Virus record (IMG/VR): IMGVR_UViG_3300021387_000164
Location: 1-64,000 of that record
Length of the DNA: 64,000 nt
Direction: 5' to 3' (one strand)
Source: a virus
Taxonomy: Duplodnaviria; Caudoviricetes
Part shown: one piece after another, positions 5,450 through 21,060 of the stretch
Position numbering within the stretch: the first letter of the stretch is position 1
Layout of the letters: the number at the start of each line of letters is the position of its first letter
Notes under the pieces: generated by a model
The model's database searches: none
What the model was told of the DNA's origin: nothing
The model's input: only the letters and a program-made list of their open reading frames with translations
Program-made: the position numbers and the translations under genes

Positions 5450-7810
5450 TTTTCTTATCCTTTTTGATATCGTTATTGATTAACTAACGATAAGAATTAA
5501 TATTTGCGCATTCTTAGGTTGCGCGTTACCTTTGAGTTAAAAAGTGGCATTCTGGCTCAAAGGCTCTATGAATGTTGTTTATTGATTTTTATTACGTATC
5601 TTTATGCGTGCTTATGAGAGCAATTTTTTAATTATTAATAGAGTATTTCCTAACTGTTATATCTTTATATTCCTCAAAGTGAAACTCATTCAACATAACG
5701 GGGATCCAACGGTAGGATCATCCATGCCCATCATTAGAAGATTCTTCTATCTTTAATAAAAATACAAAATCCGATACTGTGTAACCAAACATAAAATCTT
5801 ATAAACTTATGTAAATATTCAATTTTCATGAACTGGATACTTTCATCTGTTCGTTGGCGAAATTTTGCTTACGCAACTAACGTTCGTAGAACTTTTTACT
5901 AAATCCAGCTTAGATTCCAAAAATGTTGCGTAATATATTCTTCAGCGTATTTTCCCTATAGCTGTCCGAATCTACTACTTTCCGATGCTGTACAGTCTTG
6001 CGATACTGTTTAGGCGCATCTACCACTGTTCTGTGCTTTTTACCGGTCAGAACAATCAATACCCGGGTGCTGTTAACGCAAGCTTACGAATCTGTTCAGT
6101 AGCTCCATAACTACGTCTACGTAGTATCATACGTTTCTTTATCGAACGGTCCTCTTAAGGTGTCAGTGCCTCGACCCTACGGCGCGTTGTTTTCTTCTAT
6201 TGGATGCGCTTACTCCACCCTCATTTGTTTATAGTGCACGAATACTGGAGGAATTTCACCTCATACATCGCTTCTTGTCACCCACTAAAGTTCCACTTCA
6301 CCGAATCATATGTGTGCCGAAACGTATTTCTACGACGATCTAGCGTCACTACATAATCTCTTTACCCCTCCGAGACAGGGAGGTGGTTCCACTTCGCGAT
6401 AGCTGCCCATCGATTAAATGTATATGACTTCATGGTCCGAACGCACCACTTAGATTTGCTGTCTAAGCTTCTGGTCTATCATCTTGTCAATTTGCTTCTC
6501 AGGAACGGTTGGCACTCGATTTCTCTATCATACGTCTAAAATGGTCATGTTTCTTCAATACAACAGAAGGACACTTTTCTAAGGCGTTGAACATAACGTA
6601 ATAGATTTCATAGAGGGACATCAATTTTTGTTAAACATGTTAATTTCATCTGGCTACTTTCACATAGTTTTGCTTGATGGTCAAGACATACCGCACACAG
6701 GTTTACTACTCCTGCTGATATAGTACATCAGTGCCCTACTATGTTATCCTTTACAGACGTTGGCGATCTCCTTCTACACTGGCGTGTGTAGACCTCGAAT
6801 CGACCTAAATAAGCTAACGGCTCTGCCTGCTTTTGACTATAAGGTTGTCATCCTTCGACTCCAGCATTTCCTCTGGTACATCTCCAATCTATGCTACTAA
6901 CACACCGCTTACCATGGTTTTCGCACCTTTAGAATAGTCTTTCTCCCCGGACTTCACTCGGGTAGCATTCAAGCCTCTAGGCCCTACTTCGCATTCAGTT
7001 CCTGCATCGAACTGGTGATCATTTTTCATTTAGCACGAATCAATTCCACGTGTCTTATACCGCTTAAACGATCAAAGCCTAGCGGTCATCTTCAACACAT
7101 TTTCCTCAGTACCCCGTCCCCGGTGACCCATTGGGACCGTAGCCTCAAAGGTAGTCATCTAGTAATCGAAACTAGAAGGATTTCTTCAAGGACCGTAGTT
7201 ACGGTACGGCGCAGACAGTCAAACCTTCTGCTAGGCACATATGCTCAGATATTTTTCATCCCCTTACACACCCGGTTGGACCTCCGAAGAGCCCGAGTGA
7301 AGGACTAGACTACAGCTTAATTGTGAATTGATACATCATATAAGAGTTTTGGCCTCTACTTATATGGGCAACTCGTGTATCGTAATTTTACCACTATGTA
7401 TCGCTTGTGATAAATCTATCAATACGGTTCAGTTTAGAGCTACTCTAGGATTACTCCTATTTCGGTTTACTCTACGTCTTTCAGTATATTCCTGACTTTT
7501 TACATGCTTTCACATCGGTTAGACGTGTTTTAAGTCCTGGGCGGCAAAGTACCAACCTGGTGTATACTATGGGGTCTGATACAGACGCTCTCCCCACTTA
7601 CTATAACCTTTTCAGTATAGAGTATATTATACAGTTATAGCATTTCATCCTACCTTTTGGGTTTCTCACCTTTTGAGAAGGCTAACATATTCTCGGATCA
7701 AGTATATACTCTCGTTTCGCACCCGGCTAATGAGACCGTTGACGTGGTGCTGACCAGTTCCCCCACGGGGCAGGGGGACATATGAATCCTCATACATCCC
7801 CCAACTGCGG
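5450..7810 (-). ncRNA. candidate very large structured non-coding RNA (about 2.1-2.3 kb)
   Basis: No credible ORF. Many helices, including an 11-bp long-range pair (6952-6962 / 7292-7302) and a terminal pairing (5706-5718 / 7647-7660). Strand inferred from flanking genes and purine-rich loops. Confidence 0.6.
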
Positions 7811-7816
7811 AGCTTA

Positions 7817-8263
7817 CTAACGTTTATAGACTTCCTTACCGTCGACAATAAGGATAACGGACACTTTAGGAGGTCCGATAGTGTCTGTGGTGTGCTCCTC
7901 ACGATCCACATCTACTGTTATTGGGACAGGCGTATCAGAGAGAATAGCTGGAATGCTATCCCCGTTTCGTTTCGCCTGAGTGCGTGGCAATGTAGACTTT
8001 GCCTTTCGCTTAGCTTTTACGTATATGGGTTTTTCTTTCCATACCGTGTCGTGGATTACCTCTTTGGGTTCATTGTACTTATTCTCCAGATCTAATTGAA
8101 GATCAAGTGGCAGCTTTACTCCATTAGGAGTCCAGCTTAACACTGGAGCTGCACTGATTGTGTTATATGAATCCGCTAATGCCGTTGAAGGCTGCAGATT
8201 TGCTAAAAAGCCACCGAGAACGGTCATACACACAATACACAGGAGGGTATGTAACTTTTTCAT
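7817..8263 (-). CDS. secreted or membrane-anchored hypothetical protein
   Basis: MKK followed by a hydrophobic N-terminal segment, 148 aa. Confidence 0.8.
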   Translation of the reverse strand: MKKLHTLLCIVCMTVLGGFLANLQPSTALADSYNTISAAPVLSWTPNGVKLPLDLQLDLENKYNEPKEVIHDTVWKEKPIYVKAKRKAKSTLPRTQAKRNGDSIPAILSDTPVPITVDVDREEHTTDTIGPPKVSVILIVDGKEVYKR

Positions 8264-11914: not shown

Positions 11915-12155
11915 CGCCTTTTGTTATTATAGAGGTGTCAGGTAGGCGTAACACTCCTCTTTGTTACGTGGGCATTTGTTTTTATACTGGTGTCGGCAAG
12001 CCCGGTAAGCCATCCAGTTCAGTGGTCCCGGAGGGGATTGAACCCACGACCTCCAGATTATGAGTCTGTTGCTCTAACCAACTGAGCTACAGGACCGAAT
12101 GCACGGCGCATCTGTTTTTAAAGTGGTACCCAAAGCCGTGCCATCCTGCTCCACT
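11915..12155 (-). repeat. three H-type pseudoknot-like units interleaved with tRNAs (11915-11960, 11970-12018, 12101-12155)
   Basis: Covarying P1 (AGAGG/CCUCU, ACUGG/CCAGU, AGUGG/CCACU), shared UAAWAACA linker, loop pairing with downstream sequence. Confidence 0.55.
12023..12096 (-). tRNA. tRNA(CAU), probably Ile2 (lysidine type), otherwise elongator Met
   Basis: Canonical cloverleaf, loop CU-CAU-AA; C4-G69 and C5-G68 fit TilS substrates. Confidence 0.9.
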
Positions 12156-12161
12156 ATAAAA

Positions 12162-12220
12162 GGAGTGAGTGCGGGAGTCGAACCCGCAGAATAAATTCGT
12201 CCAAATTACCCACTCTCCCC
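12162..12220 (-). ncRNA. anticodon-less tRNA-like minihelix
   Basis: GCGGG-UUCGACU-CCCGC T-arm stacked on GGGGAGAGU/ACUCACUCC. Confidence 0.5.
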
Positions 12221-12242
12221 ATTTAGGTAGGGAACACCGACT

Positions 12243-12428
12243 TCACGCAACCTCCTTGAGGCCCGTGTAGTCTGCAATGTTAATATTGCCGGTTAAATTT
12301 TTATATCAAAGCGCTTAATGTGTTTACTTCCACGTGAATCAATACATCTCAGGCCCGGGTTTAGAATAAAATAGTGGACCTGGAGGGTGCGACCCCTCGT
12401 CTTCTCCGCTTACCTCACACACGCTATG
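12243..12428 (-). ncRNA. ssrA: circularly permuted (two-piece) tmRNA
   Basis: Acceptor piece ...GAC-GAGGG-GUCGCA-CCCUC-CAGGUCC-A (ends 12375) precedes the coding piece starting GGGCCUG (12356). G3-U70 and A73 present. Tag ORF 12290-12243 encodes GNINIADYTGLKEVA*. Confidence 0.8.
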
Positions 12429-12964
12429 AATTTCTTATCGCAGATTATTGACAAAACATTGAGTATATGGTTAATACTCATCTGCTGTGTAGAATTCCGT
12501 GATGATCAGTCACAGAATTCGATTTAAGGCCATTTACAGGCTCTCTGACGCGTTTTTAGTGCTTTTGTGGGTAGCTAATCCACTAGAGTACATCAAACGC
12601 TTAGAAAGCGTGTTTCTAGACCTCAATAAAGTTGATACGGTGGACAAATTATTGGCTCTAAGGCTCGAAATAAGGTCGTATCTGCATTCTTGAAACAGGT
12701 ATATATTCTTTCGTTCCCTACTCGAATAGACTCTCTGGTTCAGTATACTTACGTGTTTTTGATCAAAATGCTCCTATATTTTACACCCTAGGCTGGGCGT
12801 CTATCTTCTATCGTGGCTCTAAGGCTCTTGATAATCATGTCAATCCATGCGTCATGTACTGCCTATATTCTGACCCGATCGTCACTCCGAAGGACTTAGG
12901 TACTTTTTATCCACACTGGTTCAAAGACTCTCGTGGACTGAAGATAAATGGCTGTCAACGTGGA

Positions 12965-20920: not shown

Positions 20921-20948
20921 TTTTATCTAAGCGCTCTCACTTGCGCTG

Positions 20949-21003
20949 AACTGTTTCGTCGTAATTTTCAACGACTCATCAGGAGCCTAAAGGCCCGACA
21001 GTT
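20949..21003 (-). ncRNA. hammerhead ribozyme, type III
   Basis: AACUGUC^GGGCC-UUUA-GGCUC-CUGAUGA-GUCGU(UGAAAAUU)ACGAC-GAAA-CAGUU. Confidence 0.92.
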
Positions 21004-21060
21004 TATAAATACAGCACACCTATTCTCACGAACCAGTGTGTGCCAGAAATTGAAAATAAT

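Follow-up and report, generated by a model that had tools for sequence, protein, structure and literature searches.

The window, meaning the whole 64,000-nt stretch analysed here (positions 1 to 64,000 of the IMG/VR record IMGVR_UViG_3300021387_000164), carries on its minus strand, from 12433 to 12243, an element that by sequence reading and by Rfam is a circularly permuted tmRNA gene. Along this strand the T-arm and the 3′ acceptor strand come first, followed by a spacer of 18 nt and the 5′ acceptor strand, which is the inverted order that the initial annotation had described. The 5′ part of the acceptor piece (12399–12429) holds the 5′ strands of helix 2, namely UCAUAGCGU (12429–12421), GUGU (12420–17), GCG (12409–07) and GAA (12404–02), together with a conserved internal loop, GAGGUAA, and a terminal GAC (12401–12399) that is invariant in all 17 sequences of the family alignment presented below. 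The T-arm (12383–12398) consists of the stem strands GAGGG (12398–12394) and CCCUC (12387–12383) around the loop GUCGCA (12393–12388). It leads into the 3′ acceptor strand CAGGUCC (12382–12376), A73 (12375) and C74. At this acceptor end the sequence UCCAC is invariant in 17/17, and CCA is unencoded in every family member, the window copy having C74 after A73.

The 18-nt segment between A73 and G1 (12357–12374) would be removed on maturation; its length in relatives ranges from 16 to 176 nt. Beyond it, the 5′ acceptor strand GGGCCUG (12350–12356, with G1 at 12356) pairs with 12382–12376 to give the 7-bp acceptor with G3-U70 and A73 that had been proposed for this site, and the stem covaries in the family. 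The next stretch (12306–12349) comprises the D-loop analogue AGAUGUAUUGA, without the UGG that is usual there, as well as the 3′ strands of helix 2: UUC, CGU, ACAC and, after an AUUAA bulge, GCGCUUUGA. Helix 2 is built from the pairings GUGU/ACAC, AGCGU/GCGCU, GCG/CGU and GAA/UUC; the helix-2-like pairing noticed earlier is therefore present, and its helices 1–3 covary in the alignment. An A/U-rich linker of 15 nt separates helix 2 from the tag frame (12243–12290), which opens with the resume codon GGC (12290–12288) and runs through 15 codons, GNINIADYTGLKEVA, to the stop codon UGA (12245–12243), as the initial annotation had read it. Two hairpins lie inside this frame, GCAAU/AUUGC and GCCUC/GAGGU (helices 6–7). 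The tRNA-like domain is thus composed of the upstream 3′ strand and T-arm and the downstream 5′ strand, and displays the alanine identity elements G3-U70 and A73. An anticodon arm is absent, helix 2 and the tag frame occupying its place, and the long covarying helix 2 would tie both pieces together.

The resulting RNA is minimal, with about 55 + 140 nt, and no counterparts of the pseudoknots PK1–PK4 were found in the crAss-like phage tmRNA. The size of about 190 nt given at the outset is right for this core, after which come two further elements, a conserved hairpin (12234–12216) and a trailer (12214–12163). The post-stop hairpin, UUCCC-UACCUAAAU-GGGGA (12216–12234), has the family-conserved loop (C)UACCUAAGU. 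We considered a pairing of the internal loop GAGGUAA with UACCU of this hairpin loop and discarded it, as inspection of the alignment by eye revealed no covariation. Upstream of the gene, about 120 nt (12437–12560, minus strand) contain the family-conserved blocks GUGGAUUAGCUACCCACAA and GCGUCAGAGAG, a hairpin around AAAUGGCCUUAAAUCGA, and GACUGAUCAUCA, and, in the window, also a 60-nt insertion with a GAGUAU/AUACUC hairpin. This region may be a promoter, a leader or another small RNA.

The trailer (12163–12214, minus strand) is a miniature tRNA-like element of 52 nt with the acceptor AGUGGGU/ACUCACU, one small hairpin and the T-arm GCGGG-UUCGACU-CCCGC; in the predicted folds it has no anticodon loop. 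This T-arm is canonical and gives a local match to RF00023 at 12171–12187. A one-piece reading, in which it (12187–12171) would close a standard tmRNA at the 3′ side, was considered as well and rejected: ACUCACU does not pair with GGGCCUG, and the T-arm is that of the separate trailer. A reading of the trailer as a tRNA-His-like minihelix with G-1:C73 was likewise dropped, this feature being unconserved across the family. A tRNA or tRNA-like element occupies the same position in 18/18 family rows, 15 of them scored by script and the other three recognised by reading the sequence. In four rows (L069, L074, L077 and L075) it is a true tRNA above the Rfam gathering score. Homologous trailers in relatives have the acceptor AGUGRGU, and the acceptor pair 5:68 covaries, being G-U in the window, G-C in L079 and A-U in L071 and L078. 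A scan for promoters and terminators returned no terminator-like site between the tmRNA element and the downstream tRNA-Met and tRNA-Gln. The trailer is probably a processing handle for RNase P/Z, and cleavage by RNase P at this point would fix the 3′ end of the coding piece. In cr273_1 (L001) the trailer (1615–1683) scores 53.6 bits as a tRNA, with an anticodon arm 3 nt short and a 4-nt loop, and for cr7_1 a single blastn match covers both the tmRNA and a tRNA-Cys annotated in RefSeq, which may be the trailer of that phage.

The initial annotation had suggested ARAGORN and covariance models as a check, and the outcome is divided. At default settings ARAGORN, like Rfam at its gathering thresholds, reports only tRNAs at the locus and makes no tmRNA call. 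With thresholds lowered to 90%, ARAGORN calls a permuted tmRNA at 12152–12466 with a tag identical to GNINIADYTGLKEVA and flags it as low-scoring. The Rfam model RF04321 (tmRNA_permuted) matches 12243–12433 over its full length (model positions 1–213) with 40 bits, short of the gathering score of 47, at E-values of 2.6e-6 for 1.1 kb searched and 5.5e-8 for the complete 99-kb genome. Relatives are detected more readily. RF04321 exceeds its gathering score in 10 metagenome loci (49.9–67 bits) and reaches 46.2 bits in cr273_1, and default ARAGORN calls a permuted tmRNA with a homologous tag in 7/9 IMG/VR relatives as well as in cr273_1 and cr124_1. The lineage models RF01849, RF01850 and RF01851 remain below their gathering scores on the window, cr273_1 and 15 relatives; their best results are 13.9 bits for the cyanobacterial model on the window and 37.2 bits for the betaproteobacterial model on cr273_1, where the gathering score is 84.

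These relatives were collected in two ways. A blastn search against a phage collection led to the crAss-like phages cr272_1 and cr273_1, in which the matching stretch is annotated as 'transfer-messenger RNA, SsrA' and adjoins a tRNA-Met, as it does in the window. RefSeq gives the syntenic element this SsrA annotation in cr272_1 and cr273_1 (Buhlduvirus; NC_055903/4), cr124_1 (NC_055899), cr7_1 (Burzaovirus; NC_055895), and cr130_1 and cr131_1 (NC_055901/2). Default ARAGORN reads the tag of cr273_1 as GNINVVDYTGLQEAA; cr124_1 and cr7_1 have a more divergent copy with the tag GNVNNIVDYTNVA. The 20-mer GGAAGTAAAYACATTAAGCG from the 3′ strand of helix 2 picked up 9 contigs from IMG/VR and 15 from metagenomes. 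It matched a genome collection once, within protein-coding sequence of a Bacteroidia chromosome, and this match was set aside as due to chance. The final family set comprises 18 rows including the window and two RefSeq loci, 17 of which are distinct in the aligned stretch (alignment A1). The architecture recurs in 16 distinct relatives, which belong to crAss-like phages or stem from gut metagenomes. One of them, L005 (= L075), has a 176-nt spacer holding an ATG-to-TAA frame of about 53 codons (MKGYIVLYKV...), possibly a gene inside the excised segment.

Alignment A1 was scored for a structure consisting of the three helix-2 segments, the T-stem, the acceptor stem, the two tag hairpins and the post-stop hairpin. 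Among the 17 sequences, 93.6% of the pairing cells are paired, compared with 78.1% after shuffling (0/500 shuffles reach the observed value) and 30–52% when the partners are slid, and 19 pairs have changed on both sides. Such changes affect 9 of the 15 pairs of helix 2 (helices 1–3), 4/5 pairs of the T-stem and 3/4 pairs of the post-stop hairpin (helix 8). The tmRNA acceptor pair 5:68 is G-C in 8 rows and C-G in 7, while the G3-U70 position is U-G in 17/17 and A73-C74 is invariant. Some of the unpaired acceptor cells arise because L070 and L078 are shifted by one column in the alignment; the acceptor stems of these two are actually perfect (GGGGAGU/ACUCUCC and GGGGCGU/ACGCUCC). In the tag frame, codons 7–10 (D7, Y8, T9, G10) differ at third positions only, codon 14 uses all four Ala codons across the family with GUU (Val) in the window alone, and the stop is UGA or UAA and always in frame. 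The tag frame, whose conservation the initial annotation had made a test of its proposal, is conserved at the protein level and behaves as coding sequence.

A 7-nt T-loop of the form UUCRANY and a GG in the D-loop make up the canonical tRNA-like elbow, and both are kept in canonical tmRNAs. The window copy has neither: its T-loop GUCGCA is 6 nt long without UUCRA, and its D analogue has no GG; the initial annotation comments on neither. In the alignment, 14/17 rows are canonical with a UUCGANN T-loop and a D-loop analogue containing UGG. The remaining relatives are L005/L075, with the T-loop AGACAUA and the D segment AUGU, and L009/L071, with AGGCAUA and AUGC. Together with the window these are exactly the three copies that default ARAGORN misses, and we attribute the failure of the standard finders on them to the loss of the canonical T-loop and the D-loop GG. 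Comparison of the window with its closest relative, L071, shows how localised the change is. None of the 7 T-loop positions is shared (0/7), whereas identity outside the T- and D-loops amounts to 86%, which limits the change to two loops normally in contact with each other, and the window copy retains its stems, helix 2 and tag. The D segment of L009 (AUGC) is complementary to T-loop positions 3–6 (GCAU), as is that of L005 (AUGU) to ACAU, and the difference between these two relatives is compensatory; the window fits this D/T loop–loop pairing weakly, with 3 pairs. We take this as a hint of a compensating 4-bp loop–loop helix in L009 and L005, a lead that comes from two informative sequences and that the window does not fit cleanly. 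Two further pattern scans of IMG/VR returned no elbow-altered copies beyond L005 and L009.

Taken together, the element is very probably a circularly permuted two-piece tmRNA gene (ssrA) from a gene family found in crAss-like phages of the Suoliviridae/Oafivirinae group, in agreement with the identity first proposed for it. This assignment is supported by the match to the permuted Rfam model, the ARAGORN calls in relatives, the covariation and the codon-level conservation of the tag. The score below the Rfam gathering threshold could also be expected of a chance tRNA-like arrangement or of a permuted tRNA-Ala gene that is no tmRNA at all. Against either stand the missing anticodon arm, the match over the full length of the model, and 16 homologues with covariation and a conserved tag, among them relatives above the gathering score. 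We regard this reading as vanishingly improbable, and as far as sequence analysis reaches it is refuted by the family data.

Another question is whether the window copy still works. Canonical tmRNAs keep both elbow loops, so that a copy that has lost them could be impaired, and the gene might be a decaying or functionally altered one, inactive in trans-translation and surviving as a relic, or else titrating host SmpB or AlaRS as a decoy. Its T-loop departs from the canonical form and evolves fast (0/7 versus L071, against 86% identity in the rest of the RNA), the D-loop GG is gone, and ARAGORN calls the gene only below threshold. A decoy would also have a reported precedent in a tmRNA-like RNA lacking a CDS, that of mycobacteriophage DS6A (PMC11915505). 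However, the window copy has an intact acceptor stem, T-stem, GAC, helix 2, resume context and tag frame, and these parts are kept by three altered-elbow lineages (window, L005 and L009); damage limited to two interacting loops resembles a coordinated change more than general decay. We therefore consider loss of function unlikely. Having lost the T-loop/D-loop contact, the window copy may differ from the 14 canonical members in efficiency or in its mode of SmpB binding. A further-reaching proposal, which we put forward tentatively and rate as possible but doubtful, is that the crAss-like tmRNAs form a separate fourth permuted lineage, free of pseudoknots, about 200 nt in size and cut from a tRNA cluster by tRNA-like punctuation, within which the window, L005 and L009 have rewired the universally conserved T-loop/D-loop elbow or dispensed with it while trans-translation continues.

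For a two-piece tmRNA that functions in trans-translation, the following pathway can be envisaged. The gene and the adjacent minus-strand tRNA cluster would be transcribed together, and host RNase P would cut 5′ of G1 (12356) and again 5′ of the tRNA-like trailer. The spacer would be trimmed to A73-C74 and CCA finished by the host CCA-adding enzyme, so that the acceptor piece would end in ...CAGGUCCA-CCA. Charging by host AlaRS via G3-U70 would be followed by delivery to stalled ribosomes in the infected Bacteroidales-type cell by host SmpB and EF-Tu. Translation would then resume at GGC, adding A-GNINIADYTGLKEVA, and tagged proteins would acquire the family C-terminus AGNINIADYTGLKE(V/A)A.

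The genomic setting adds to this picture. The genome record is complete, with 99,055 bp and terminal repeats, and the absence of smpB noted earlier for the window extends to the complete 99-kb genome. A phage without SmpB makes the function of its tmRNA wholly dependent on the host. The major head protein is 86% identical to its counterpart in cr272_1, which places the phage among Suoliviridae/Oafivirinae-like crAss phages; a 1042-aa tail-like ORF had no match in the phage collection, and placement was therefore based on the head protein. Many of the late plus-strand genes, from about 33 kb onwards, carry in-frame TAGs; examples are a frame of 4709 codons with three and one of 1345 codons with five. 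The ARAGORN calls for the complete 99-kb genome, including those at relaxed thresholds, contain no tRNA with a CUA anticodon. In the five tmRNA-bearing relatives checked, the homologous gene contains 2–8 in-frame TAGs each. All six phages with tmRNA and TAGs are close kin, so their co-occurrence is no independent correlation, and a link between the tmRNA and TAG recoding is speculation. The role first proposed for the RNA, rescue at ambiguous TAG codons or on ribozyme-cut mRNAs, is accordingly a hypothetical one. Self-cleaving motifs occur as well: the window has a type III hammerhead ribozyme above the Rfam gathering score (20948–21004, minus strand), and a relative's contig, L068, a RAGATH-1 hammerhead (7747–7823, minus strand).

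In contrast to the permuted form of the phage, the likely hosts, Bacteroidia, use a one-piece tmRNA; those sampled have the standard one-piece molecule with tags such as GENNYALAA. To look for a Bacteroidia origin, 27 Bacteroidia tmRNAs were turned into two nhmmer profiles, the first covering the 5′ part up to and including the tag and the second the last 66 nt at the 3′ end; neither showed any particular affinity for the crAss family. The 5′ profile has no match in the crAss family at E<0.01, and matches of the 3′ profile are confined to the universal T-arm and acceptor and rank below many other phage tmRNAs. The GNY(D/N) tag starts and the genomically incomplete CCA resemble Bacteroidia tmRNAs, a similarity that we consider anecdotal.

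Permuted tmRNAs are established for Alphaproteobacteria, some Betaproteobacteria and Cyanobacteria (PMC11915505). The two-piece tmRNAs of these groups (RF01849, RF01850 and RF01851, with the merged tRNA-domain model RF04321) have the same permutation as the window element, a tRNA-like domain and helix 2 assembled from two pieces, and the tag on the piece beginning with G1. By comparison, the phage RNA is much shorter, and no pseudoknots are seen in it. A two-piece tmRNA carried by a phage has been described for phage Melnitz (PMC9004378). Melnitz and other aquatic phages in that study share with the window a phage-borne permuted ssrA and the lack of any reported phage smpB (PMC9004378). The ssrA of Melnitz belongs to the alphaproteobacterial type, and its 3′ domain contains a glutamine riboswitch, whereas an Rfam scan of the window finds no such riboswitch.

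The existence of a tmRNA in crAss phages is itself already known. It is annotated in RefSeq, and Table S1 of Buchholz et al. 2022 lists cr272_1, cr273_1, cr124_1, cr125_1, cr130_1, cr131_1, cr114_1, cr115_1, cr10_1 and cr50_1 as 'Permuted' (PMC9004378). In the paper on crAss genomes by Yutin et al. 2021 tmRNA goes unmentioned, and our literature search found no paper that discusses the crAss tmRNA itself. The RefSeq copies agree with the window in permuted order, position in a tRNA cluster, G3-U70/A73 and homologous tags, and also in the P2 motif GGAAGUAAAYACAUUAAGCG, the post-stop hairpin and the tRNA-like trailer. Compared with these and the other relatives, the window copy has a spacer of 18 nt instead of the 60–176 nt found in most of them, a non-canonical 6-nt T-loop and a D-loop without GG, and a tag ending in EVA instead of EAA. 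The endings EAA, EVA and HVA are unusual for tmRNA tags, taking the place of LAA. What the present analysis adds is the elbow-altered subclade, the tRNA-like punctuation at the 3′ side and the reason why standard finders miss the window copy. For annotation this means that elbow-altered copies slip past default ARAGORN and the Rfam gathering score.

A whole group of abundant gut phages supplies a ribosome-rescue RNA of its own, reduced to a compact form in two pieces. Its minimal architecture and the variants without a canonical elbow could provide natural experiments on what a tmRNA needs for SmpB binding and ribosome entry.
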